Shown here: positions 2,696 through 37,394 of the stretch, piece after piece
How positions within the stretch are numbered: the first letter of the stretch is position 1
Layout: each line of letters opens with the position of its first letter
Virus record (IMG/VR): IMGVR_UViG_2880384115_000007
Strand: one strand, 5' to 3'
DNA from: a virus
Taxonomy: Duplodnaviria; Heunggongvirae; Uroviricota; Caudoviricetes
DNA: 39,952 nt
Position numbers and translations under genes: made by a program
The notes under the pieces: model-generated
What the model was told of the DNA's origin: nothing
Databases searched by the model: none
The model's input: only the letters and a program-made list of their open reading frames with translations

Positions 2696-3086
2696 CGTCT
2701 TTTCTCCCCGGAATTAACTCGCGTGGATTATCGGAACGGTGATAGAGCCAGATGCCAATACGCACGGCGACAATTGCTGACACGAATGCGCCTGCAGAGA
2801 AAACAATCCCTTTTTCAAAAGAGTCCTGCGTGATGGTAGGGATCAGGCTGGCTATGCCGATAAGAATTGATGCTGCTGGTTTGTAAAAGAGAAGGCCGCA
2901 AAGAAAGCTGAGCATCGACAGGAGCACCCGGCGACGGATGGGGTACTCTACTGCAGAGGTAACAAAAATTACCGCCCCAGCCAAAGCCCCTAAAGCAACC
3001 TCCGGAGGGACACCTGCAATAACCGCAGCAAGAGAACTAACACTAAGCCACTGATTTGAAGTTTCATTGGTTAGTTGGAATGACAT
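2682..3086 (-). CDS. Putative holin
   Basis: 134 aa with multiple predicted TM helices and charged C-terminus; first gene of the lysis cassette after the tailspike. Confidence 0.5.
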   Translation of the reverse strand: MSFQLTNETSNQWLSVSSLAAVIAGVPPEVALGALAGAVIFVTSAVEYPIRRRVLLSMLSFLCGLLFYKPAASILIGIASLIPTITQDSFEKGIVFSAGAFVSAIVAVRIGIWLYHRSDNPRELIPGRKDDGNA

Positions 3087-3158
3087 AACGAAACCCGTTT
3101 ATTTGCAAACACCCTGCTTCAGGAAAAGTATACCGCGCAACAACACACCATTTACGGT

Positions 3159-5621
3159 TCAATTCCCTGTTAATTGCAAAACTTGCTCTTCCAGCTTTTT
3201 AACCCTGCGTCTCATCATCGCAGATTCCAGAATCAGAGCCTCTTCATAACGGATACCGTAACATTCACCAGCCTCGACGGCTTCGCGTACCAGAACCTTT
3301 GTCTGTATAAGTGGGTAAACTCCTGCAGAATGCTCTTCTTCCGTCACATCCCTGTATTCTGCCGGGGTCTCATTCCACTTGTCATAACAGATAAATGCCA
3401 GTCGTGACACATCTATGCCTTCATTCTGAAATACACTGATAACATGCTGCGCAACTGCACCAAAGTGCCATCTTGCTCCGTCTTTACCTTTCACTTCGAT
3501 CCTGTCAAGGTACTGGTATGAAACCCATTCCACTCTTTCCCATGCGTCCAGTATTTTCTCATCAATAACCTCTGGAGCAGTCTTGAAACGCGCATCGGAC
3601 AGCACCGTAAACGCTGACTGGGTAAATCCCCCCGACCATGCACGACCAGCCAACCCAAGAGAATAAGTATTCGTTGTCGATGGTGTCATGGCTGAATCAG
3701 AAAACTGTATATATTCTGAATTTCCAGTAGATATTCGAATATTTCCATTTATTAGCGACATAGTGCCTTTAGTATTATCACTATTGAATAATTTCAATTG
3801 CGAACTTATACCGCCTCCCACAGCCAGAGATACATCGCCTTCAGCAAGCATTCTGAATTTATCTGCAGAAACAAGCGTCTGGTTAGCAAGGTTAAAATAT
3901 TTAACCCACCATTCAAAATGCCCTGACATAGTCCCAACGTACTGACCAAGCGCAGGGACGTGAACAACATTGCTATTTGTAGTGCCGTCTATACTGGAAA
4001 TACCAGTCACCGCTGATGCAGAACTCAGAATATTATTTCTGTCACCCGGATGTTTAATTTCAACAAAGTTCCTGATACACCCTTCCTCGAAGGTAACCAC
4101 GCCGGAAGAACTATACATGGGGAATATTGACGCATAATTACTGCGTGCAGCATCTAAGAAACGAATGGTTGTAGATGTCTGCAGATCTCCTGATTCATTT
4201 TTCCCATCACACCCAGTCATTAGAATATTACTGGCAATATTATTATTTCCCTGAACGGTGACGCCGTGCGCCTGCTTTGCGTCCGATTCAGAGTAATCAA
4301 CCAGCACATCCGAAATCAGGTTACCAGTCCCCTTGCCAACAACTACTGCGGCGTATTTTGGGTTGTTAGCCATTACACTGCTAATGATATTATTCGTTGG
4401 GGCAGTTTCCGTCTCAGTTCCATTGTAAACAACGTGCTGACACTCTTCACCAATAACATTGCTGACAATGTTATATTTTGCTGCTGTTTTAAGTTCCACT
4501 GCACCAAACTGAGGATAATTTCTGGCTATCACACCATCAATTAGCGTATTTTGCGATGAATCAAAAAGCACACAACCTGCTTTTTTATTATTTGCGAACC
4601 CTAAATACTCTCCTCTTATATCTCTAACAATGTAACCTGACGGAATACCATTATCCGGATAAGCGATCAAGCTAAATCCTGGTCCTCGCGTATTTGTAAA
4701 TCTGATATTTTTAACCGATACATCATGGCCACCTGAAAATGACACCTGGTGTCCCTGCACACTATCATCTGATTTATTTCCCATAATTGTTAGCGTACTA
4801 AGCATGCCACCATCGGGCATGTTAAAAACCAGATGATTACCATCTCTGTCATACTGTTTTATCGTTCCCCCACCTGTTCCGTACAAGCCACAACGTGAAA
4901 GAGAAACTAAAGATGTATTGAATACCCCTTCCGGAACAAAAACACTGCTAAACGAATGTAATGATTTTGTAAAAGCATCCTTGTTATCATTTAAGATTCC
5001 ATTTTGAGCTCCAAAATCCTTAATGCTGACACCATCACGCATCTTATCCTGGAACGTTCTGTATACCGCTCCAGAACCATACTGAATAAACCAACCAAAA
5101 CCACCAATAACTCCGGCGATTGCAGCATCGACATAATTACGCATTGAGCGATTATTTACAGCGTCCTGCTCAAGTGATGGATCGGCAAGGTTAGATATTC
5201 TGTTTTGCTTTGCATCGTAATATTTTGCAAGCAAAGATGGTTTCATCAATGCACGTCTGAACCACCCAAAACATCGCTGGATCAGCATCGTCAGGTAGTC
5301 AAATGCATCCTCATGAACTTCGGGGAAAAATTTTCCCTGATTGCGAAGATCAGTCTCCTGCACCACATCAAGCACACGCTCTATCGTGATTCGCCAGCCA
5401 GCAGCAAGCGGCGACGGAAGAACCACTGCACCGCCACTATAAGTTCCCGCCCCTGTTACCGTATAACCAGCATCCAGCACTAGTTTTGTAACGTTACCGT
5501 TAAGGTCAGACACCTGAACAACCAGGTCGGATTTTTTGAAAATACGGAAGGTATACGGAAATGATGTCGTAACGCCGTTACCTGTGTATTCGTTGTGGTC
5601 AACTTCGGTTGAGACCGTCAT
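3159..5621 (-). CDS. Tailspike / receptor-binding depolymerase with C-terminal self-cleaving chaperone domain
   Basis: 820 aa; N-terminal ~130 aa resemble the T7 gp17-type tail-fibre anchor; central Gly/Asn/Ser/Thr-rich repetitive region typical of beta-helix depolymerases; C-terminus (SDARFKT...WHFGAVAQHV) resembles peptidase S74 intramolecular chaperone domains; centre and C-terminus look AT-rich by eye. Confidence 0.8.
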   Translation of the reverse strand: MTVSTEVDHNEYTGNGVTTSFPYTFRIFKKSDLVVQVSDLNGNVTKLVLDAGYTVTGAGTYSGGAVVLPSPLAAGWRITIERVLDVVQETDLRNQGKFFPEVHEDAFDYLTMLIQRCFGWFRRALMKPSLLAKYYDAKQNRISNLADPSLEQDAVNNRSMRNYVDAAIAGVIGGFGWFIQYGSGAVYRTFQDKMRDGVSIKDFGAQNGILNDNKDAFTKSLHSFSSVFVPEGVFNTSLVSLSRCGLYGTGGGTIKQYDRDGNHLVFNMPDGGMLSTLTIMGNKSDDSVQGHQVSFSGGHDVSVKNIRFTNTRGPGFSLIAYPDNGIPSGYIVRDIRGEYLGFANNKKAGCVLFDSSQNTLIDGVIARNYPQFGAVELKTAAKYNIVSNVIGEECQHVVYNGTETETAPTNNIISSVMANNPKYAAVVVGKGTGNLISDVLVDYSESDAKQAHGVTVQGNNNIASNILMTGCDGKNESGDLQTSTTIRFLDAARSNYASIFPMYSSSGVVTFEEGCIRNFVEIKHPGDRNNILSSASAVTGISSIDGTTNSNVVHVPALGQYVGTMSGHFEWWVKYFNLANQTLVSADKFRMLAEGDVSLAVGGGISSQLKLFNSDNTKGTMSLINGNIRISTGNSEYIQFSDSAMTPSTTNTYSLGLAGRAWSGGFTQSAFTVLSDARFKTAPEVIDEKILDAWERVEWVSYQYLDRIEVKGKDGARWHFGAVAQHVISVFQNEGIDVSRLAFICYDKWNETPAEYRDVTEEEHSAGVYPLIQTKVLVREAVEAGECYGIRYEEALILESAMMRRRVKKLEEQVLQLTGN

Positions 5622-5724
5622 GTTAAATCTCCAGATAGTCGCAGCACCCGTTGCGCCGCATATCTGGTTATTCTATTACCTGAAAAACCACATATGGATA
5701 TAAAGGCTGTAAATACGAATAGAT

Positions 5725-5741
5725 ATTACCTTTCAGGTAAT
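5725..5741. promoter_or_regulatory. Dyad ATTACCTTTCAGGTAAT (TTACC-N5-GGTAA), candidate operator
   Basis: Perfect 7-3-7 inverted repeat between divergent tailspike gene and LexA-box gene; same dyad recurs at 10 other intergenic sites. Confidence 0.6.
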
Positions 5742-5777
5742 TTGCAAAACGTGCTGGATAGCAAACAAATTATTTGC

Positions 5778-5797
5778 TACTGTATAAATATACAGTT
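5778..5797. promoter_or_regulatory. LexA (SOS) box
   Basis: TACTGTATAAATATACAGTT matches the CTGT-N8-ACAG enterobacterial LexA consensus at 18 of 20 positions; directly upstream of the 5818..6075 gene. Confidence 0.8.
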
Positions 5798-5817
5798 ATT
5801 GCATGGAGAAGATTAAG

Positions 5818-6075
5818 ATGCAGCAGTATCACTATCCACTGGAAGAGGGATTTACCGAAAGGATTCACACGCCGGGAGGCGTCAGGTCACTGGTGGAGGG
5901 ATCGCACTTGATGAAATTACTCCGGGATCTCGATAAGGATGGATTTAATGTCGATGGCCCACTTGCCGAACTGACTGCACTGATTAACTACGTCACCAGC
6001 TCACAGATGTCTATGCAGGATCTGCAAACACATCTCGACTATTGTGCCGAACAATTACGAAAACAAACCAGATAA
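5818..6075 (+). CDS. Small LexA-controlled protein; candidate SOS-inducible antirepressor
   Basis: Start placed at second ATG (5818), which has a GGAG RBS; the 85-aa product aligns with the C-terminal ~65 aa of the Bro-N protein at 6391..7101; LexA box sits in its promoter. Confidence 0.5.
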   Translation: MQQYHYPLEEGFTERIHTPGGVRSLVEGSHLMKLLRDLDKDGFNVDGPLAELTALINYVTSSQMSMQDLQTHLDYCAEQLRKQTR

Positions 6076-6211
6076 GATTTGAAATTACCAATAGGAGTGC
6101 TTATATTTACCTTTGCAGTAAATTTACATCGCACTCCTCTTGTGCCATAGTAATCGGGCACTGGCAAAATCCAGTGCCGGGATTGGCGTCCCGGGTTACT
6201 AAGTGGCGCAT

Positions 6212-6235
6212 ACCACGCCAGACGTGGTTTTTTTA
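6212..6235 (+). terminator. Rho-independent terminator
   Basis: Stem ACCACG / CGTGGT with 5-nt loop followed by seven T; ends a structured untranslated stretch 6076..6235. Confidence 0.55.
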
Positions 6236-6390
6236 TGCGTTAAGCACAGCTATATCCGAATTATGGTGGGCTGGGCAGGGGTCCGAAAGGACGCCGGTAC
6301 CACTTAGGCCGGTACGCCAACCTTGTCCAGTTCACCACCAGTAATTGGCGTTGCGGTGGTGATTAAAATCACTAAGTGGAGATAACCACC

Positions 6391-7101
6391 ATGGCTAATG
6401 CTCAAACTGCCATCTTCAAATTTGAATCTGTTAACCCTATCCGTTCCATCATTATCGATGGCCAACCATGGTTTGTAGCCCAAGACGTTTGTAGTGCGCT
6501 GCGTATCCAAAACGTCACCCAAGCACTTGAAAAACTGGATGATGATGAAAGGTCTATGTTCAACATAGGGCATGAACATCGTGCAATTTTTGACAGCCGA
6601 GTAAAAGAGATCAACATTATCTCCGAGTCAGGCCTCTACACACTGATCCTCCGCTGCCGCGACGCAGTGACACCAGGCACTATCCCCTACCGCTTTCGTA
6701 AATGGGTTACAGGTGAGGTTCTTCCTCAGATCCGCCGCACCGGAAGTTACATTAAAAACTCGCTCCCGCAGGAAGAACGCATAAAGATGGTTGCCGACCA
6801 GGTAGCCAACGCCACAGCATCAGCAATGATGCAGGCAATGAAGATAGAGAACAAAACCTACAGTGCCCCACTGAAGCCCGGCTACCGTAGCCTGATTCAT
6901 TCTCCGTCTGGTGTTCTCGGCCTGACGGAGAACTCACTGCTGATGAATCTGCTGAACCAGTTACAGGACGACGGGCACGACGTATCGGGCGCGGCGGCGG
7001 AGCTGACCACCATGTTCTGCTACATCGTTGGTGTGAGCAAATGCCTGCGTGATATCCAGACGCACGCGGAGTACATCAACGACAAGGCAGGGTTCTTCTG
7101 A
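6391..7101 (+). CDS. Bro-N domain protein (antirepressor-like)
   Basis: Start at ATG 6391 with GGAG RBS (track start 6376 is GTG); N-terminus has Bro-N hallmarks (FKFESVNPIRSIIIDGQPWFVAQDV...LDDDER...FRKWVTGEVLPQIRRTGSY); C-terminal domain homologous to the 5818..6075 product. Confidence 0.75.
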   Translation: MANAQTAIFKFESVNPIRSIIIDGQPWFVAQDVCSALRIQNVTQALEKLDDDERSMFNIGHEHRAIFDSRVKEINIISESGLYTLILRCRDAVTPGTIPYRFRKWVTGEVLPQIRRTGSYIKNSLPQEERIKMVADQVANATASAMMQAMKIENKTYSAPLKPGYRSLIHSPSGVLGLTENSLLMNLLNQLQDDGHDVSGAAAELTTMFCYIVGVSKCLRDIQTHAEYINDKAGFF

Positions 7102-7173: not shown

Positions 7174-7188
7174 TTACCTCAAGGGTAA
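7174..7188. promoter_or_regulatory. TTACC-N5-GGTAA dyad upstream of the moron gene
   Basis: TTACCTCAAGGGTAA about 60 bp upstream of ATG 7248. Confidence 0.5.
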
Positions 7189-7247: not shown

Positions 7248-7880
7248 ATGAGAACAAATACAACAAGAAAAGCGATGCCATACATTATCCCAGAAGCAGA
7301 TTTCGATAGAAAACTGAACATGTCTGAGAAGAACACTAGTCACACCGAAAGCTACTTAGCGAAAGGTGTGGTTGATTTCGTTCTTCCGGGATTCACAACA
7401 CCTTATGGTTATCGCCTTGTAAAATCTTGTAATGGCGATCATTACAGAATGATTACTACCAGCGATACTCCAGAAACGGTGTATGCGGTTAAGTTAATCT
7501 TTCGGGAAGATATCGTCGAAGCCAAAAGAACATGTACGCAGATCATGGTATGGCGTACGCCTAATGTTATTCATGACCGTGCTGTTCATGGTTTGCCTCA
7601 GATTTTTTTTCAGTTCTTCCTAGAGCAATATGCGATCGTTGTATCTGATGAGCAACAAACAATCGATGGGAGAAGATTCTGGGAAAGAATGATTTCTTGG
7701 GCTATAAACACCCCAGGATATAATGTATACGTTTCAGATGGCTCTGAAGAAGATAGACCTCTTAGCTTCATGGCATCATGGGATGATTTCTATAGCCAGT
7801 GGGCTGATTTCTGTTGGGGCAGTGATAAAGATGTGCATACCCACAGACTACTGGTTATAAGCAAAGATAAACTGCATTAA
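7248..7880 (+). CDS. Hypothetical protein, AT-rich moron
   Basis: 210-aa ORF with GGGAGG RBS and its own terminator; visibly more AT-rich than flanking phage genes; no recognisable motifs, no TM or signal peptide. Confidence 0.6.
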   Translation: MRTNTTRKAMPYIIPEADFDRKLNMSEKNTSHTESYLAKGVVDFVLPGFTTPYGYRLVKSCNGDHYRMITTSDTPETVYAVKLIFREDIVEAKRTCTQIMVWRTPNVIHDRAVHGLPQIFFQFFLEQYAIVVSDEQQTIDGRRFWERMISWAINTPGYNVYVSDGSEEDRPLSFMASWDDFYSQWADFCWGSDKDVHTHRLLVISKDKLH

Positions 7881-19864: not shown

Positions 19865-19914
19865 ATACACTCCTGCAATAAAGGGGCCGAAGCCCCTTGT
19901 CTCATCCGCGAGGC

Positions 19915-24642: not shown

Positions 24643-24732
24643 ATCAATGACTCCGTACGCAATTAAATTATTACCAATTTAACCACATATGATTTATTTA
24701 TCGTAGAAGGTTGACATTTGACGCGCGAATTA

Positions 24733-24747
24733 TTACCTTTCAGGTAA
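24733..24747. promoter_or_regulatory. TTACC-N5-GGTAA dyad in the portal-operon promoter region
   Basis: TTACCTTTCAGGTAA; TTGACA hexamer at 24711..24716 and conserved box AACCACATATG at 24681..24691 nearby. Confidence 0.55.
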
Positions 24748-25069: not shown

Positions 25070-25146
25070 GTGGTATTAGCTCAGTTGGACAGAGCAACCG
25101 CCTTCTAAGCGGTTGGTCGCAGGTTCGAATCCTGCATGCCACGCCA
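25070..25146 (+). tRNA. tRNA-Arg (anticodon UCU)
   Basis: 77-nt cloverleaf folded by hand: 7-bp acceptor stem (one GU), D-arm GCTC/GAGC, anticodon stem ACCGC/GCGGT with loop CTTCTAA (anticodon TCT), T-arm GCAGG-TTCGAAT-CCTGC, 3' CCA encoded. Confidence 0.85.
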
Positions 25147-27282: not shown

Positions 27283-27875
27283 TGATTACCATCCTGACGT
27301 TCTTTGAGTCGCTTCCTGGCTGCTGCTATGCGATCAGCAATTGTCACATTCACATTAACATCCAGACGTTCTTTGAACGCGTTGACATCAACATGCTTAC
27401 CAATCAGCTCAAGGTTCTTCACCTTGTCAGGCCATTTAATTTTTTTGAGGATTGTCTCTATCGAATCCTCGTTCATGTTCATGATGGTCGATGACAGATC
27501 AAAGCCACTAAGCGTAGTGCGCCAGATTTTCGGCCACTCACGGATTGGTTTAAGGCTCCCATCGTCGTTGAGGATGTCGATCACGTCCATCTGGTCGATC
27601 TCCACCAGGCGCATGAGAACGTAATCAGCACTGACGCGCATTCGTTTGTTGCGCTCCTCCATCAACTCGGCAATCCGTTTTTGAATGCGTTCATCGCGCA
27701 TCATGACGCTGGCTTTAACTGCCGCTGTATTTGGGGAGAATCCTGCGTTAATCGCTGCCTGAGTCTGGTTTTCAGGCGTTTTGATGTATGACTGGCAATA
27801 AGCCTCCTGCATTGCTGTTAGTGGCTTAAATTGCGTTGATTTGCGTTTATAGGTTTTAGGTTCAGCAGGCATCAT
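27279..27875 (-). CDS. Terminase small subunit
   Basis: Start moved to ATG 27875 (RBS GGTGG upstream); conserved block YCQSYIKTPENQTQAAINAGFSPNTAAVKAS typical of small terminase subunits; the track's longer N-terminus would put the palindrome at 27985 inside its RBS. Confidence 0.65.
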   Translation of the reverse strand: MMPAEPKTYKRKSTQFKPLTAMQEAYCQSYIKTPENQTQAAINAGFSPNTAAVKASVMMRDERIQKRIAELMEERNKRMRVSADYVLMRLVEIDQMDVIDILNDDGSLKPIREWPKIWRTTLSGFDLSSTIMNMNEDSIETILKKIKWPDKVKNLELIGKHVDVNAFKERLDVNVNVTIADRIAAARKRLKERQDGNQ

Positions 27876-27984
27876 AACCACCGTGGTAATAGTTACCGTT
27901 TTGGTAATAGTACCATGCAAAATAAAGCCGCCATAGTTGGCGGCAGTATCCAAAACCGTCAAATTCATCATGCATAATCTACTC

Positions 27985-27996
27985 GTGACATGTCAC
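27985..27996. repeat. Perfect 12-bp palindrome GTGACATGTCAC, copy 3 of 3
   Basis: Overlaps the stop codon of 27993..28340 directly upstream of the terminase operon. Confidence 0.8.
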
Positions 27997-28340
27997 ACTA
28001 TTAATTTCGTTTCATGCCAGCCTTTAGTCACCCAGCATTGCGAGTCACCATTACACGGGCATGAATTAACTGGAACTCTCTCGCCGCACTTACCGCAACG
28101 TTTTCTGCTGATCGATTTTATACGCCCGCGCACACGTGCATCATCCTGGCGGATCAGCAGCGCGATGTACTCGGCCATTTCATAGGGATCGCGACCAGGG
28201 CGCCGGGCGGCGCAGTTCCGCGCCAGCATTTCCTGCTCCTGCTTATCCAGCACCAGTTCAATTTTGCGCTCACCGGCGGCGGACTGCCGAGCGCGCTGCG
28301 CGGCTTTGCGTTCTGCGGGGGATTTAGCCACGAATCGCAC
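27993..28340 (-). CDS. Zinc-ribbon protein, basic N-terminus (hypothetical; late-regulator candidate)
   Basis: 115 aa; Arg/Lys-rich N-terminal half and C-terminal CGKCGERVPVNSCPCNGDSQC Cys cluster; immediately upstream of terminase genes; track start is GTG, so N-terminus uncertain. Confidence 0.4.
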   Translation of the reverse strand: MRFVAKSPAERKAAQRARQSAAGERKIELVLDKQEQEMLARNCAARRPGRDPYEMAEYIALLIRQDDARVRGRIKSISRKRCGKCGERVPVNSCPCNGDSQCWVTKGWHETKLIV

Positions 28341-30987: not shown

Positions 30988-31332
30988 TCAGAACTCTTCG
31001 ATATTCCAGCCACCACCTGCTTTCTTTGGTTTAACCGTTACCCCGATGATTCGGAACGGATACTGATCTGCGGCGACTTTGGTTTTCACCCTGGCGTCGT
31101 CGGTCCAGAAACCTTTCACTTCGTGCAGTTCCATCTCGCCGGTGGCGAGCATCACAGCAAAATCGGGCGTATAGAACGTGTTGTCAGCTAACCGCAGCTT
31201 GATACCCTCAAATCGATACCAGACGATTTCTCCTGCACGTTTACGCAGCTCAAGGTGCTGGCAATACGCAGATTCTGTTTTGTTCATCTGACCTGTTTTG
31301 AGTCGACCAAGAGCCTGTATCTGTTTTCTCAT
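30988..31332 (-). CDS. PD-(D/E)XK-type nuclease (DUF1064/resolvase-like), putative
   Basis: 114 aa with YTPDF...ELHEVKG nuclease-like motif; RBS GAGG lies inside a TTACC-N5-GGTAA dyad. Confidence 0.45.
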   Translation of the reverse strand: MRKQIQALGRLKTGQMNKTESAYCQHLELRKRAGEIVWYRFEGIKLRLADNTFYTPDFAVMLATGEMELHEVKGFWTDDARVKTKVAADQYPFRIIGVTVKPKKAGGGWNIEEF

Positions 31333-31335
31333 GAT

Positions 31336-31412
31336 TTACCTCTGAGGTAATTAAAAACCACATAAGACACGAAATCAATAGATTTTAGAATATTTTATTA
31401 CCTAACAGGTAA
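31336..31412. promoter_or_regulatory. Promoter/operator cassette with two TTACC-N5-GGTAA dyads and conserved box
   Basis: Dyads at 31336..31350 and 31398..31412; box AAAAACCACATA at 31353..31364; TCGACA-like hexamer just upstream in gene orientation. Confidence 0.55.
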
Positions 31413-31449
31413 TTGTCGAGGCGTAAAAAAATGCGCTATCGCGCTGGTA

Positions 31450-32250
31450 TTACTTGATAAATCCTGCCGCCTTTCCCCGCCTGTATTCCTCCATCAGCCA
31501 CTGCGCCGGTGTTATTCCCCCAAGGGTGGCGGCGTTAGGCATGCACCCGAAACTTCGCCCTGGTGGATGGTAAACGTCTCTCCCTGTGTCCGGAGGCGTA
31601 CTCATGGGCTCTGGCTTTGCCTGTATGCTGATCACCGGATCGGGTATCTGCTGTCCGGAAGCCACCTTTTTCGCCCAATCATCGAGCAGCCTGCGTGCGT
31701 GTTTCTCAACCTCAATCTCGCTAAGCTGGCGCTGATACATTGCACGGCGGGTATCACATACGACCCAGTACATAACCGGATGTCGCCACGGGAATCTTTC
31801 GGGACCACCAGGATATAAACTTTTTTCCTTGCTGTACCGGTGAAACTCCGCCATCACATCGTCAATGGTGACGCCAAGAACCATCTTGCTGTCTTTGCAC
31901 CACTTGATAAATTGCCCTGGAGACGGCCAGAACGGAGATTCACTGGCGCGGGCGTGGCGCATACCAGCAGAAACCTGTTCACGGGTTCGGATCCCCCCTT
32001 CGGCAAACGCAGCAATCCACTGCTGTTTTGCAGCAACTTCCTGCTCTGGCGTCTTCAGGTTGGTTACCACTGCCGCCGGAAACAGTTGTTTCAGCTGTTT
32101 AAAAAGGGCATCAACAAGCCTCTCTGCTGACATGTTCACCACATTGTCATTGTTGACGTACTGATGCTCATAACCTGACATGCGAGAAAGGGCTTCTCCG
32201 TCACGGTTTTGTATCGCGGTAAAAACGTTGTTCACAAGAAATCCTCCCAT
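31450..32250 (-). CDS. Replication protein P-like (helicase loader)
   Basis: Block QWIAAFAEGGIRTREQVSAGMRHARASESPFWPSPGQFIKWCKD closely parallels lambda P (QWVLAFRENGITTMEQVNAGMRVARRQNRPFLPSPGQFVAWCRE, recalled from memory); follows the O-like gene. Confidence 0.7.
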   Translation of the reverse strand: MGGFLVNNVFTAIQNRDGEALSRMSGYEHQYVNNDNVVNMSAERLVDALFKQLKQLFPAAVVTNLKTPEQEVAAKQQWIAAFAEGGIRTREQVSAGMRHARASESPFWPSPGQFIKWCKDSKMVLGVTIDDVMAEFHRYSKEKSLYPGGPERFPWRHPVMYWVVCDTRRAMYQRQLSEIEVEKHARRLLDDWAKKVASGQQIPDPVISIQAKPEPMSTPPDTGRDVYHPPGRSFGCMPNAATLGGITPAQWLMEEYRRGKAAGFIK

Positions 32251-33047
32251 GCTTCAGGGCTGTTCCAGTGCGGAACGTTGTTATCAGGTAATGTTGATTG
32301 CTTCTGTCTGCTAATCTGCAGCCGCCTTGCCAGCTTCTGCTCCCACTGTGCCTGATGGTATGCCTTACCCTCAGCCATCCAGTAAATTCTGAACTCTGCA
32401 AGTTCCTGTGCCGTTGGCAGACTGTCCAGGTAGATCCCCTGCAATGAGCTTTTCCGAAGAAAGTCATCTGATGGCTGCCATTGTTCATGCATGACAAATT
32501 TGCCTAATTGCCCTGGCCCACCAGGAGGAACAAAGTTATTCATCACGGCGTTGTTTGCGCCGGGGTCATGAGGCACAGAATCCCCGCTTTTTGTCCTGCT
32601 CTCCCTCTCTTGGTTAAATGACTGGTTATATGACTGGTTCTGGATCCCGTTTTTGGGATCATTCAACATCCCGTTTTTGGGATCATTCAACATCCCGTTT
32701 TTGGGTATATTCCCGTTTTCGGTAACATTACCGTTTTCGGGTTCATTGCCCCCCTCCCGGTTGCCTTTAATGTTCCCGTTTTTGGTTATATTAAGAGAGA
32801 AAACCCGCACTCTTTTTGTCGCTCCCTTTCTCTCTCCGGTATCTGAAATAAGCCCCATTTTCATGAGCGATATAAGCCCGGCCTGCACGGTTTTTTTATT
32901 CAGGCAAGTGTCTTTAACGAGGCGTTCTATGCTGGGGTAGCAGAGGTTATATTCATCGGCTCTGTCAGCCATCGAGAGCAGTATGAGCTTTAATGATGAG
33001 CTACCTGGATCTGTCTCCCAGGCCCAATCTGTTGCATGTCTGCTCAT
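32232..33047 (-). CDS. Replication initiator O-like protein with internal origin
   Basis: N-terminal HTH-like domain, central NGMLNDPK tandem repeat encoded by DNA iterons, C-terminal domain; GGAG RBS; precedes the P-like gene as in lambdoid replication modules. Confidence 0.6.
   Translation of the reverse strand: MSRHATDWAWETDPGSSSLKLILLSMADRADEYNLCYPSIERLVKDTCLNKKTVQAGLISLMKMGLISDTGERKGATKRVRVFSLNITKNGNIKGNREGGNEPENGNVTENGNIPKNGMLNDPKNGMLNDPKNGIQNQSYNQSFNQERESRTKSGDSVPHDPGANNAVMNNFVPPGGPGQLGKFVMHEQWQPSDDFLRKSSLQGIYLDSLPTAQELAEFRIYWMAEGKAYHQAQWEQKLARRLQISRQKQSTLPDNNVPHWNSPEAWEDFL
32644..32790. repeat. Iteron array (putative origin of replication) inside the O-like gene
   Basis: Two perfect 24-bp tandem repeats ATCCCGTTTTTGGGATCATTCAAC (32644..32691), each with an internal ATCCC...GGGAT inverted repeat, plus at least four degenerate copies; flanked by direct repeat TGACTGGTT at 32618..32640. 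Confidence 0.7.
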
Positions 33048-33062
33048 GATTAATCTCCGCTA

Positions 33063-33263
33063 TCAGCTTGAGTGTTGTGGGGAGGAATTAATCATGATCT
33101 GCTTAATCTCTGCCCTGATGCGACGGTTTGATTCCATGGTGCACTCAACACAGTGTCCGTTGTAAACCCAGCGTTCACTGTCATGTCCGTGCTTACATGG
33201 TTTTCCGGTGTAGTAGCGTTTAAGTCCGCGCTTTGCGGCATCAATACGTGTAATGATTTCCAT
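33063..33263 (-). CDS. Small Cys/His-rich (zinc-finger-like) protein in the cII position
   Basis: ATG at 33263 gives 66 aa with CKHGHDSERWVYNGHCVEC; the track's longer version starts at TTG. Confidence 0.4.
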   Translation of the reverse strand: MEIITRIDAAKRGLKRYYTGKPCKHGHDSERWVYNGHCVECTMESNRRIRAEIKQIMINSSPQHSS

Positions 33264-33372
33264 GGTAAGCCCTGTTATTAGTATTGGGATTACGGTTATT
33301 TTGTGCTGACACAAAAAAAAGATCAACCATATTTGGTTTTTTATTACCTTTAAGGTGCGAATAGATATGAAA

Positions 33373-33392
33373 AGACCGCCGGGTGGCGGTCT
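33373..33392 (-). terminator. Stem-loop downstream of the cro-like gene (possible weak terminator)
   Basis: Perfect 8-bp stem AGACCGCC / GGCGGTCT with GGGT loop; only three U follow on the minus strand, so intrinsic termination is uncertain. Confidence 0.35.
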
Positions 33393-33413
33393 ACAGAGGG
33401 GTGTAGCTGGATA

Positions 33414-33644
33414 TCATGAGTAGAAGAAGTATGCCAGTTCTGCTTTTGAGCGCAACCATTGTCTTGTTTTACAGGCTTTAAAAAGCCCATTCATCAATAC
33501 TTTACCTGGCATTTTGCGCTTACCTGTTAAGTGAGTCTGGATATAGTGACTCGTCGTTCCGGCTTCCTGTGCGAAGGCTTCACGCTCATCCGGAGTAAGT
33601 GCAAGCCAGTGCTTTTTGAAATCGAAATGTCCGTTATCGCTCAT
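33414..33644 (-). CDS. Cro-like small regulator (putative)
   Basis: 76 aa, divergent from the CI-like gene across a 154-bp region with three operator dyads, followed by a stem-loop and the O/P genes; call rests on position, no sequence match to known Cro. Confidence 0.45.
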   Translation of the reverse strand: MSDNGHFDFKKHWLALTPDEREAFAQEAGTTSHYIQTHLTGKRKMPGKVLMNGLFKACKTRQWLRSKAELAYFFYS

Positions 33645-33680
33645 AGCTATTGCCTGATATTTATTTCAGATAATAAATAT

Positions 33681-33743
33681 TCACCCATAAGGTAACAAAA
33701 ATCAAGGATAGTTACCTATGAGGTGCATTTACCCGTTGGGTAA
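33681..33743. promoter_or_regulatory. Tripartite operator region between cI-like and cro-like genes
   Basis: Three dyads with identical 5-bp spacing: TCACC-N5-GGTAA (33681..33695), TTACC-N5-GGTGC (33712..33726), TTACC-N5-GGTAA (33729..33743). Confidence 0.6.
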
Positions 33744-33798
33744 TATTGCTTTAAATTGAATCATCTACTGATTCATATATGAGGCGATTTTCCAGAAA

Positions 33799-34383
33799 AT
33801 GAAAAGTATCCAGGACGTCCGCAGGCAAAATCTCAACGACTTGATCGACCGTGAATTCAATGGTGTTCAGACGCGGATGGCAGAAAAACTTGGAACTCAG
33901 GCAAATCTGGTAAACCGCTGGGCTCTTGGCAAGAAGGTTATCGGCGACCAGGTTGCGCGAAAAATTGAAGCTGCCGCCAATAAACCACGTAACTGGCTTG
34001 ATATCGATCGCTCGCTTTCTCAGGAAGGTTTTCAGCCTGTCGGCCCAAGCGACATTGGTCAGCTGGCGGCTCACAACCTGGAACGCTGGATGAGCGAAAG
34101 CCGCGACCTTTCAACACAGGGAAAACTTCACCGCGCATCCGGCGTCGCCCAGGTGACAATCAGCCGCCTGTTAAACAATGAGGTCAGCGTTTCCATTTCC
34201 ACCCTGGAGAATGTTGCATCCGCATTCGGGCGTCACGGCTATGAATTACTGATTCACCCGCACGACCCTGCGACCATCAACTATGACCGCTCGCGCTACG
34301 CATTGTTACCCGAAACCGAGAAAGCAAAGATCGAAAGTTATATTGAATTTGTCATCAACCAGAACGAAAAAAACAAACAATAA
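33799..34383 (+). CDS. CI-like prophage repressor, two HTH domains, no S24 peptidase domain
   Basis: N-terminus (MKSIQDVRRQNLNDLIDREFNGVQTRMAEKLGTQANLVNRWALGKK) resembles phage CI-repressor HTH domains; second HTH-like segment (VAQVTISRLLNNEVSVSISTLENVA); no Ala-Gly / Ser...Lys autocleavage module. Confidence 0.65.
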   Translation: MKSIQDVRRQNLNDLIDREFNGVQTRMAEKLGTQANLVNRWALGKKVIGDQVARKIEAAANKPRNWLDIDRSLSQEGFQPVGPSDIGQLAAHNLERWMSESRDLSTQGKLHRASGVAQVTISRLLNNEVSVSISTLENVASAFGRHGYELLIHPHDPATINYDRSRYALLPETEKAKIESYIEFVINQNEKNKQ

Positions 34384-34403
34384 AATCATACTTTTCAGTA
34401 AGT

Positions 34404-34428
34404 AAGCCGCCTTCTGGCGGCTTTTTTA
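34404..34428 (+). terminator. Rho-independent terminator after the repressor gene
   Basis: GCCGCC-ttct-GGCGGC followed by six T. Confidence 0.75.
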
Positions 34429-34440
34429 TTGCCTATACTA

Positions 34441-34517
34441 TTACCTAATGGGTAATTTTTTTAACTCATATCTATTGACATCAAACCAAATACGCATAAT
34501 TATTACCTCAACGGTAA
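34441..34517 (+). promoter_or_regulatory. PL-like early promoter with two operator dyads
   Basis: Dyads at 34441..34455 and 34503..34517 bracket a consensus -35 TTGACA (34475..34480); the second dyad sits where the -10/+1 is expected. Confidence 0.55.
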
Positions 34518-34536
34518 CAGACCGAGGTAACAAGTT

Positions 34537-34689
34537 ATGCAGTGGAAAATCATCAACGGTTGGTACTGCGTTACTGCATGCGGATTCATGAGCTGGAAGT
34601 TCCGCACCTTACAGGAAGGCATTAAGTGGGCTTTCGTCAGCAAAGAAGCTCGCGATGTGGCCAACGATAACGAGATATGGGAGGGCTGA
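34537..34689 (+). CDS. Small hypothetical protein, first gene of the early plus-strand operon
   Basis: 50-aa ORF (MQWKIINGWYCVTACGFMSWKF...) with GAGG RBS; not in the supplied track because it is under 60 aa. Confidence 0.3.
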   Translation: MQWKIINGWYCVTACGFMSWKFRTLQEGIKWAFVSKEARDVANDNEIWEG

Positions 34690-34691
34690 TA

Positions 34692-34991
34692 ATGAACGTT
34701 AATCAGCAGAAAAATCTTCAAAAAATCATGCTGGCATTCGACAAGGACTACCGCCTGTCAGAACAGCTATATGACCGACAAGTTGAACTGATCGAGAGCA
34801 TCCGGCTTCATCAACTGGCCTCAACTTTTGACGCTGTAACAGGCAAAGGAGTTCGCCAGGAAGTGCTGGAGGCAGCTAAAGACAGCCATGAGTTCGAAGA
34901 ACTTATGGATGCCTACCGGCGCGAGGCAATGGCAATTATCGCCCGCTGGGATCTGGCGGATCGGATTGATGGGCAGAGGGAAGCGGCATGA
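34692..34991 (+). CDS. Hypothetical protein
   Basis: Start placed at MNVNQQ (ATG 34692), directly after the upstream small ORF stop; about 99 aa helical protein; coupled to the exonuclease gene. Confidence 0.45.
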   Translation: MNVNQQKNLQKIMLAFDKDYRLSEQLYDRQVELIESIRLHQLASTFDAVTGKGVRQEVLEAAKDSHEFEELMDAYRREAMAIIARWDLADRIDGQREAA

Positions 34992-35809
34992 AACCGGGAA
35001 TTTATTTCGACATCAGCAACGAAGACTACCACGCCGGTGACGGCGTGAGTAAGTCGCAACTGGACATGGTTGCCAAGAATCCGGCGCTTCTTAAATGGGT
35101 TCAGGCAGCACCAGAAGACGAAGAGAAAAAGTCTGCACTGGATATGGGAACCGCATTGCACTGTCTGCTTCTGGAGCCTGGAGAATTCGACAAACGCTTC
35201 ATTGTTTCACCGAAGTTCGATCGTCGGACAAAACAAGGTAAAGCTGACGAAGAAGCATTTCTTCGTGATGTGGCGGATATGGGTATTACGGTACTTGATG
35301 TCGAGCAGTGGCGAAAACTGGAGCTGATGCGTGATAGCGCAATGGCTCATCCGGCGGCACGCTGGATGCTGGAAGCACCTGGTTACTGCGAAGCATCAAT
35401 GTACTGGAACGATGAAGAGACGGGTGAGTTGTGCCGAATTCGTCCAGACAAATGGCTGAACGAGCACAACGTGATCGTCGACGTGAAAAAGGTTGCAGAT
35501 ATGGACCGTTTTGCACGCCACATCGAGGAATTCCGCTACCACGTGCAGGACGCAATGTACCGCGAAGGCGCAATGAGGGTTACTGGTCAGCCGCATGGTT
35601 TTTTCTTTCTTGCCGTCAGCGAAAGCATTGATTGTGGTCGGTATCCGGTACGCGTGTTCGAGCTGGATGCGCCAGATGTCGATGCCGGGCACGCTCTGTT
35701 CCGCCGGGATCTGAATACCTATCACGAATGCCGCATCAACGATGAATGGGGCGGAGTGGAAATTATTAAACGCCCTGACTGGGCACGTAAACAGGATATG
35801 TACGTATGA
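34988..35809 (+). CDS. PD-(D/E)XK exonuclease (RecE/YqaJ-like recombination exonuclease)
   Basis: 273 aa with nuclease-like D...E.K spacing; immediately upstream of and coupled to recT. Confidence 0.55.
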   Translation: MKPGIYFDISNEDYHAGDGVSKSQLDMVAKNPALLKWVQAAPEDEEKKSALDMGTALHCLLLEPGEFDKRFIVSPKFDRRTKQGKADEEAFLRDVADMGITVLDVEQWRKLELMRDSAMAHPAARWMLEAPGYCEASMYWNDEETGELCRIRPDKWLNEHNVIVDVKKVADMDRFARHIEEFRYHVQDAMYREGAMRVTGQPHGFFFLAVSESIDCGRYPVRVFELDAPDVDAGHALFRRDLNTYHECRINDEWGGVEIIKRPDWARKQDMYV

Positions 35810-37094: not shown

Positions 37095-37394
37095 GTGAGA
37101 AAGTTAAGCCGACTTGAAAAATATCACATGAATAAGGTTTCAATGCGCAGTCCGTCAAAGATTGTCGCCGTTACTCCTGCGGCGATAGAGATCGAAAAAC
37201 GCGCGATTGAAAGAGAGAAAAAAGGGCAGTTCCGCATTGCCGCCCACCTTTGGCTTCAGTGTATGGATGTTGCTTCTGGTGATGTTGAACGTGCAAGGAT
37301 CGCGATTCTCAGGGACCAATGTATCACAAAAGGTAACGGACTTCGCCGTGGCGACTATAGCGGCATAGGATGTTGTGGGGTGGTTTATGACTAA
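37095..37394 (+). CDS. Hypothetical small regulator (weak PerC-like resemblance)
   Basis: 99 aa, GTG start with GAGGG RBS; segment FRIAAHLWLQCMDVASGDVERARIAILRDQCI loosely resembles PerC-family activators; low confidence. Confidence 0.3.
   Translation: MRKLSRLEKYHMNKVSMRSPSKIVAVTPAAIEIEKRAIEREKKGQFRIAAHLWLQCMDVASGDVERARIAILRDQCITKGNGLRRGDYSGIGCCGVVYD

Follow-up and report, generated by a model that had tools for sequence, protein, structure and literature searches.

A second conserved box beside the repressor dyads of a phiV10-like prophage: a candidate half of a bipartite operator

Besides the palindromic operator of the prophage repressor Rep, most promoters of a phiV10-like E. coli prophage carry a second short box that is conserved at homologous positions in related phages and stands at quantised distances from the operator dyads. 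We studied it in a 39,952-nt stretch of viral DNA (IMG/VR record IMGVR_UViG_2880384115_000007), here called the window, where copies of the box precede the tailspike, gp3/portal and DUF1064 genes and an isrK/C4 promoter, and others lie in the spacer of PL and in the interval that separates cro from the following gene. Judged from the alignments, the box is a phylogenetic footprint. We favour, tentatively and with slightly less than even confidence, the interpretation that it is the half nearer the promoter in a bipartite Rep operator, by which one repressor would silence every lytic transcription unit. The box and the operator grammar are new elements inside a known kind of system, of which the dyad and the Rep/Ant/LexA components were already known.

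By sequence comparison, the window belongs to the genus Uetakevirus (epsilon15 group) and is a phiV10-like prophage. Escherichia phages HEMP4, phiV10, PAS61, phiv142-3, ZX5 and others match positions 5000-7000 and 31000-35000 with 91-98% identity, and the genes stand in the order of phiV10, reversed in orientation. A scan of IMG/VR by the portal protein confirmed 373 relatives, from which 80 loci, all 99% identical, were kept for the analysis of microdiversity. Rep homologues are confined to Uetakevirus (37 phage records), and the species-level relatives found via the Cro-like protein (two from Citrobacter, one each from Erwinia and Superficieibacter) all share the dyad and the box with the window. 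The Cro-like protein of the window also has a 100% identical counterpart on a 408-bp low-coverage contig of a myxobacterial assembly (NZ_RAVW01000927.1, Corallococcus exercitus), which is almost certainly a contamination of that assembly by E. coli phage DNA. The O-antigen-modification gene of phiV10, epsilon15 and Tyrion is absent from the window prophage (3086-3159 region), and between the terminase and portal regions sits a tRNA-Arg gene (anticodon TCT; 25070-25146, plus strand) that runs counter to the structural genes.

Rep dyads and the immunity system

The dyad reads ATTACC-N5-GGTAAT, with the core TTACC-N5-GGTAA, a 17-mer for which the annotation of epsilon15 already gives repressor sites. 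The RefSeq record of Salmonella phage epsilon15 (NC_004775.2) lists seven 'protein_bind: repressor' sites of this sequence: three at OL and one each before terS, gp3/portal, the tail fibre gene and the gene following the replication module. By sequence and genomic place, these are homologues of the window dyads. Allowing at most one mismatch, the core occurs 14 times in the window against 0.66 expected, a count that none of 100 shuffles reached, and all seven genomes examined carry 14-18 such sites. The window thus has the operators of the SPC32H/epsilon15 type at OR, OL and the late operons (Table 1). One further exact dyad (7174-7188), without a box, lies about 60 bp upstream of an open reading frame at 7248-7880; its left flank (GTACTATTACC) resembles that of the terS dyad.

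Rep has the N-terminal helix-turn-helix (HTH) and C-terminal oligomerisation domain of the SPC32H/epsilon15 type, and Pfam recognises two HTH-like regions in it, one YdaS/Cro-like (residues 21-61) and one of the HTH_3 family (residues 106-147). While overall Rep identity falls to 42%, the N-terminal recognition helix NLVNRW is invariant in eight phages, which fits a dyad unchanged across groups otherwise expected to be heteroimmune. The genome paper of epsilon15 is that of Kropinski et al. (2007). The Rep of Salmonella phage SPC32H, studied by Kim & Ryu (2013) and Kim et al. (2016), reportedly escapes cleavage, forms a tetramer on palindromic DNA and is removed by Ant. The window Rep and Ant match chains of PDB entry 5D50, which together with 5D4Z represents the SPC32H Rep-Ant lysis/lysogeny switch, and a LexA box precedes ant as in SPC32H. 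In one citing paper, the tetramer is reported to bind palindromic sites and to have two DNA-binding pairs (PMC9638917), and a second paper also cites the switch (PMC9986798). The matches strongly support, if they do not show outright, that the dyad is the binding site of a non-cleavable tetrameric Rep inactivated by a LexA-controlled Ant. The preliminary description of this DNA had postulated a shared dedicated regulator; for the dyad, this is simply the prophage repressor, whose operators are already annotated in epsilon15, and the box is better read as operator architecture.

Ahead of terS (27875-27944, minus strand), an intrinsic terminator is followed by two adjacent Rep dyads that run straight into the start codon. 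The consensus scan of the window found no recognisable promoter there, so terS and terL would be expressed by read-through from the DUF1064 operon. The Rep sites before terS possibly act as a roadblock, and the true start of the listed 230-aa reading frame is probably downstream of its 27971 start.

Table 1. Coordinates of the repressor system, the dyads, the boxes and the putative promoters in the window
Feature	Position	Strand	Remarks
GGTAATAGAAT (minus-strand reading)	5670..5680	-	GGTAA half-site and putative -10; invariant in all relatives (alignment)
Box A, minus strand reads TCCATATGTGGTTTTT	5683..5698	-	21.2 bits; conserved in 6 phages
Exact Rep dyad TTACCTTTCAGGTAA, upstream operator of tailspike cassette A	5726..5740	.	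Between divergent ant and tailspike
LexA box CTGTATAAATATACAG	5780-5795	+	Precedes ant
Ant, small antirepressor	5803-6075	+	Matches PDB 5D50_E, E = 1.7e-47
Promoter E (putative)	6065..6121	+	TTGAAA-17-TATATT 6079-6107; dyad with 1 mismatch 6107-6121 at ~+1
Box B, minus strand reads ATCATATGTGGTTA	24680..24693	-	19.6 bits; centre 52.5 bp from dyad centre
Exact Rep dyad, upstream operator of gp3/portal cassette B	24733..24747	.	Epsilon15 homologue 2931-2947 annotated as repressor site
Two adjacent dyads, 18 bp apart	27875..27907	.	Between terminator and terS start; epsilon15 site 12-27 annotated as repressor site
Exact Rep dyad at ~+1 of promoter C	31336..31350	.	Overlaps DUF1064 ribosome-binding site; 62 bp from upstream dyad
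Putative sigma-70 promoter C, TTGATT-17-TTTAAT	31350..31378	-	Predicted from six-phage alignment
Exact Rep dyad, upstream operator of DUF1064 promoter C	31398..31412	.	Centre ~-62
Cro-distal unit: palindromic box AACCATATTTGGTT (33325-33338) and degenerate dyad TTACCTTTAAGGTGC (33344-33358)	33327..33358	.	19.5 bp centre to centre
Cro-like HTH protein, 76 aa	33414..33644	-	PHROG 35 'transcriptional repressor'; possible rival reader of the box
OR region, three Rep dyads between cro and rep	33681..33743	.	Dyads at 33681, 33712 (2 mismatches) and 33729
Rep, prophage repressor, 194 aa	33799..34383	+	Matches SPC32H Rep, PDB 5D50_A, residues 1-190, E = 4e-42
PL region	34441..34517	+	10/12 promoter match; geometry as promoter C

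The second box and its conservation

Four strings had been pointed out in the preliminary description, and all four stand where it had placed them: AAAAACCACATATGG (5683-5697), AACCACATATG (24681-24691), AAAAACCACATA (31353-31364) and CCATATTTGGTTTTTT (33327-33342). An exact dyad lies 28-41 nt upstream, in gene orientation, of each of the first three (at 5726, 24733 and 31398), and a TTACC half or full site lies 2-5 nt away on the other side (at 5676, 24671 and 31336). The copies conform to the motif yC-nTwTrw-GGTT(t/a), that is, to a quasi-palindrome AACC-N6-GGTT, which becomes the near-perfect palindrome AACCATATATGGTT in the lysis promoters of phiV10 and Tyrion, the PL of Tyrion and the cro-distal copy. 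The 8-mer AACCACAT occurs exactly three times in the window, always on the plus strand and inside the three cassettes.

A weight matrix built solely from the boxes of epsilon15, Tyrion and Kp4865-1 gave nine window matches at a threshold of at least 12 bits, compared with 2.4 +/- 1.4 in 100 dinucleotide shuffles (maximum 6), eight of the nine being intergenic, in regulatory DNA or at the end of a gene. They comprise the four strings above, with the palindrome at 33327 counted on both strands, and sites at 34483 (PL spacer), 6065, 5657 and 3147. The copies reported earlier are present, but their number had been set too low: the PL spacer (34483-34496), the site at 6065-6078 and the lysis promoters of relatives have to be added. 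The box is also a quasi-palindrome, and its polarity does not always follow the gene.

The box recurs at homologous positions in phiV10, epsilon15, SPN1S, Tyrion, BUCT554 and Kp4865-1, save that no match of at least 12 bits was found in BUCT554 upstream of the gene in the DUF1064/RuvC position. Five or more relatives (phiV10, epsilon15, Tyrion, SPN1S and BUCT554) also have a copy ahead of the lysis cassette. Subsets of the PL, cro-distal and promoter C copies are found in the cro-flanking regions of prophages from Citrobacter braakii, C. werkmanii, Erwinia dacicola and Superficieibacter electus, the E. dacicola locus having only the PL copy at the 12-bit threshold. The comparison with related prophages that had been recommended thus found the cassettes in phiV10, epsilon15, SPN1S, Tyrion, BUCT554, Kp4865-1 and the Citrobacter, Erwinia and Superficieibacter prophages, and it bears out a conserved regulatory module shared by early and late transcription units. 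In epsilon15 the boxes are at positions 2989, 19941, 24752, 33753 and 35954; none is annotated in the RefSeq record, nor is the box annotated in the records of phiV10, Tyrion and SPC32H. We found no description of it in the literature reached. The ZX5 paper gives predicted promoters without operator detail, and a literature search for Uetakevirus start sites returned nothing relevant.

In the six-phage alignment of the tailspike and lysis regions, a conserved dyad is followed by about 30 unconserved nucleotides, the box and then an invariant block (GGTAATAGAAT at the tailspike gene, ATTGTGTATRAT at the lysis genes). The same pattern emerged at close range for cassette B, where 73 near-identical relatives represent 51 haplotypes over a 200-nt stretch. 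Among these haplotypes, 44 of 200 columns are variable in the whole stretch and 14 of 39 in the linker; the dyad has one variable column of ten in its arms and four of five in its spacer, the box four of 14, all at degenerate positions, and the part from the box to the start codon one. Since the box core and the dyad arms are constant or nearly so while the dyad spacer and the linker vary, purifying selection on the box is indicated. The duplicated promoter module that had also been suggested does not, as a simple recent duplication, account for this pattern: the linker between dyad and box varies freely, and the box does not.

Several known kinds of element were compared with the box and rejected. 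An RNA hairpin or terminator would have a stem of at most 5 bp, which is not conserved in cassette A or promoter C. By eye, none of the sites for IHF, CRP, DnaA, PhoP, Fis, NrdR, sigma-54 or sigma-32 fits all copies; cassette B alone matches a DnaA box in 8 of 9 positions, and inspection for the IHF core WATCAANNNNTTR with an A/T-rich flank gave no consistent match across the box variants.

Promoter layouts and spacing

Relative to the predicted starts, the box centre would lie at about -19.5 in PL and C, -26.5 in the lysis promoters of the relatives, -29.5 in cassettes A and B if their -10 elements are read as TAGAAT and TAATTT, and -41 in promoter E and the cro-distal unit. Against the sigma-70 layout of -35 and -10 hexamers with 16-18 bp between them, the consensus scan passed PL (10/12), PR (9/12) and promoter E (10/12), and cassettes A, B and C stayed below threshold; by eye, A can be read as TCCATA-17-TAGAAT and C as TTGATT-17-TTTAAT. 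In cassette A, the hexamer centre of the box (5692.5) is 40.5 bp from the centre of a dyad whose epsilon15 homologue (19895-19911) is annotated 'protein_bind repressor', and the adjoining GGTAATAGAAT joins a Rep half-site GGTAA (TTACC on the plus strand, 5676-5680) to the putative -10 TAGAAT (5670-5675). Cassette B also contains a hybrid TGGTT-N5-GGTAA (24671-24685), whose centre is 62 bp away from the dyad. In the lysis promoters of relatives, a single dyad stands at about -70, and no Rep half-site other than the box is found near the core promoter. The separate lysis promoter with dyad and box that phiV10, epsilon15 and Tyrion have between the tailspike gene and the lysis cassette is missing from the window; the lysis genes of the window lie directly behind the tailspike gene, and the box-like ACCATTTACGGTTC at 3147-3160 is the only trace of a box in between.

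PL and promoter C have a common layout in all genomes: a dyad at about -62, a -35 of TTGACA or TTGATT, a 17-bp spacer and a -10 of AATTAT or TTTAAT, whose last T opens a second dyad with its centre at about +1. From dyad to dyad the distance is 62 bp throughout, apart from 63 at the PL of Kp4865-1. In the window, PL comprises a dyad at 34441-34455, TTGACA at 34475-34480, AATTAT at 34498-34503 and a dyad at 34503-34517. The box hexamer occupies spacer positions 8-13 in both promoters, with the GGTT arm downstream in C (GTCTTATGTGGTTT, 31355-31368) and upstream in PL (34483-34496, minus strand TGCGTATTTGGTTT). According to the alignment, the box is missing from the PL of epsilon15, SPN1S and Kp4865-1, and the first two possess a third OL dyad instead. 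The weight-matrix scan showed no box at OR/PRM of the window; in the spacer of PR, a true dyad appears to occupy the position that the box has in PL and C.

The cro-distal unit, between the cro terminator and the next gene, is present in all relatives including Kp4865-1. Within 33300-33345, its box is situated between two possible promoters. The rightward one, TTGATC-N17-CAAAAT, would possibly serve p42 and the replication genes, with the box centre at about -40.5, and includes a conserved GGTTGATC with a Dam site. The possible leftward one, lacking a -35, would run antisense through cro towards rep, at the place of lambda P_RE. The box of promoter E (6065-6078, centre about -41.5) overlaps the last codons of ant. 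Promoter E apparently drives isrK, C4 and the Bro-N gene under Rep control. Rfam places isrK (RF01394, 67.7 bits) at 6158-6234 and the C4 antisense RNA (RF01695, 66 bits) at 6259-6342, both on the plus strand, between ant and a Bro-N antirepressor-like gene (6376-7101), an arrangement resembling P1/P7 immI or a Gifsy-type module. If promoter E is Rep-controlled, the prophage would have two antirepressor layers, the LexA-controlled small Ant and an sRNA-controlled Bro-N protein.

We measured the distances from box to dyad, centre to centre, for 42 distinct boxes of at least 12 bits in seven genomes, with promoter assignments predicted. For 34 of the 42, a dyad lies within 60 bp, and the only distances that occur are 19.5 bp (PL, C, cro-distal unit), 40.5 (tailspike), 41.5 (E), 42.5 (PL, C), 43.5 (lysis) and 52.5 bp (gp3/portal). 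These values are close to two, four and five helical turns, and the 62-bp dyad pairs to six. Relative to the putative -10, the box centre is 7.5, 14.5 or 17.5 bp away, or else the box precedes the -35. Both this distance and the polarity vary, whereas the distance to the dyad is quantised, which argues for a part of the operator rather than for a polymerase element or an activator site.

The variable position within the promoter bears on the idea that the box is only a core promoter part, a -35 surrogate such as TTCATA with its spacer, inherited by duplication of an ancestral promoter and read by RNA polymerase alone. The cassettes do resemble each other, and TAGAAT or TAATTT follows the left part of the A and B boxes (TTCATA, TCCATA or ATCATA) at 17 bp (16 in SPN1S). 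Yet the conserved GGTT would then be part of the spacer, in which polymerase requires no particular bases, the box sits elsewhere relative to the -10 in PL, C and the lysis promoters, and its polarity flips in PL. Moreover, the adjoining linker diverges freely, so that conservation of the box is selective. We regard this explanation as improbable.

Equally improbable to us is a site of DNA structure or for a host factor, either a TA-step kink or the target of a bending protein, that would help a Rep tetramer to bridge 42-62 bp. It would accommodate the quantised spacing to the dyads and the central alternating ATAT/CATATG, which is the most conserved inner part, and the epsilon15 record predicts IHF sites beside several Rep sites. 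The annotated IHF sites of epsilon15, however, do not coincide with the box, which on inspection misfits the consensus of IHF (WATCAANNNNTTR), CRP, DnaA, PhoP and Fis, and flexibility alone does not explain the invariant GGTT arm and the outer C. The box is also off the loop apex, 42.5 and 19.5 bp from the two dyads rather than 31 and 31.

Candidate readers of the box and known operator systems

In the bipartite operator that we favour, a Rep tetramer anchored on the strong dyad would reach the box on the same helix face four turns away (five at gene 3/portal). The box would be a weaker, differently built site overlapping the -35 or the spacer, and its occupancy would occlude RNA polymerase. 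The reader of the box could be a pair of Rep N-terminal domains, another part of Rep or a partner protein. Rep would then directly silence PL, the DUF1064-to-terS operon and the gp3/portal structural operon, and also the tailspike gene (with the lysis genes behind it here) and the isrK/C4/Bro-N unit, and removal of Rep by Ant would derepress all of these. The strictest version, in which no late-gene activator exists and a single tetrameric Rep, through operators of exactly two, four, five or six turns, keeps all transcription units of the genome off, seems to us unlikely. In that version Rep would read both the N5 dyad and the N6 box, perhaps with two different DNA-binding surfaces or by an alternative pairing of flexibly tethered N-terminal domains.

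Several features of the layout support a Rep site. The 19.5-bp unit of box and dyad approximates the spacing of adjacent dyads (17 bp at OR, 18 bp at terS), and the true dyad in the PR spacer takes the place that the box has in PL and C. The box arms (xACC/GGTw) resemble the Rep half-sites (TTACC/GGTAA), and one of the terS dyads is a hybrid TTACC-N5-GGTTA. Identical spacer positions with opposite arm directions in PL and C, together with the palindromic copies, fit a site for a symmetric dimer. In the relatives, whose lysis promoters have a far dyad and the box only, direct repression by Rep would need the box, unless these promoters are silent for another reason.

Other features count against Rep. 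The arm of the box is GGTT almost everywhere (GGAT in a few weaker arms) and never GGTA, the inner CATAT is conserved and the arms are separated by N6, whereas the dyad has a free spacer of N5; the box thus has a distinct specificity, possibly that of a different reading head or protein. PL and C already have two perfect dyads and do not obviously need a third Rep site, and the PL of three relatives does without the box. The recognition helix of the HTH_3-like Rep domain shows only moderate conservation. Furthermore, all -10 and -35 assignments are predicted, and A and B were not called by the scan.

The distinct specificity would be explained if the box were the operator of a second phage regulator, a Cro-like HTH protein or a dual-function protein switching from early to late expression, with Rep on the dyads only. 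Such a protein would repress PL and C from the spacer (-19.5) and activate the tailspike, portal and lysis promoters at about -27 to -30, replacing their poor -35. The strict GGTT and inner CATAT, the weak -35 hexamers of the late promoters and the constant box polarity there agree with this. The Cro-like protein, moreover, is conserved far better than Rep (59-84% versus 42% identity), and its HTH (AGTTSHYIQTHL), nearly invariant in eight phages, matches an invariant target. This HTH has weak, distant similarity to the N-terminal HTH of Rep with another recognition helix, as a related but distinct site would need. Putative activators, a PerC-like protein (37095-37394) and a zinc-finger 'transcriptional regulator', are encoded as well; searches of Pfam and NCBIfam assigned no family to the Cro-like protein, p42 or the zinc-finger protein, and a PDB search with the last gave no match.

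On the other side, the box is absent from OR/PRM, where Cro should act first, and repression of late promoters by Cro would make little biological sense. An activator would need a fixed distance and orientation to the -10, but the box centre varies and the polarity is inverted at PL, and a protein independent of Rep gives no reason for helical phasing with the Rep dyads. Pantoea phage AH07 has a 61% identical homologue of the zinc-finger protein, yet neither boxes nor dyads; there the gene adjoins an excisionase gene and is not ahead of late genes. This comparison disfavours the zinc-finger regulator (27993-28340, just upstream of terS) as binder of the box. Overall, we consider a second regulator less likely, although the Cro-like protein is a serious candidate, and retain the bipartite Rep operator as the working interpretation.

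Among known systems, epsilon15 shares the dyad sequence and its genomic places with the window, and its record also annotates IHF, RNase III and integrase sites. SPC32H shares Rep, Ant and the LexA box, and its tetramer, reported to have two DNA-binding pairs, is what a bipartite operator needs; the SPC32H abstracts and the citing papers contain no description of a second motif or of a 42/62-bp operator grammar. The combination of strong and weak operators that are helically phased, overlap core promoters and would act cooperatively recalls lambda CI at OR1-OR2 and in OL-OR looping. Compared with lambda CI, the distances are very short (19.5-62 bp) and the partner site is a different motif rather than a weaker copy, and the late operons would be under direct repressor control instead of a Q-type cascade.

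Mycobacteriophage L5/Bxb1 gp71 stoperators likewise offer one repressor many sites in early and late regions, here about 14-18 per genome. Stoperators are, however, asymmetric 13-mers inside transcription units and oriented with transcription, whereas the window sites are symmetric dyads in intergenic promoter regions and are accompanied by the box. The tailspike and portal boxes replace a consensus -35 near -30, like the T4 MotA box (-30), the P2 Ogr site (-55) and the Mu C/Mor sites (-43.5). In contrast to those sites, the box has no fixed distance to the -10, occurs in spacers of consensus promoters too and flips its polarity.

The SPC32H Rep-Ant pair is a structurally studied case of noncanonical repressor binding, and a genome-wide operator layout is not given in the sources reached. 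A dyad with a helically phased box at most phage promoters provides a testable model of how one tetramer may repress promoters that have a single full operator. Phages of the epsilon15/phiV10 group are used as reporter phages for O157 and Salmonella, and the map of boxes flags bases to avoid or to exploit in engineering them. Without overturning current understanding, the box would help to explain late-gene control in a widespread group of enterobacterial prophages with more than 370 relatives in IMG/VR.
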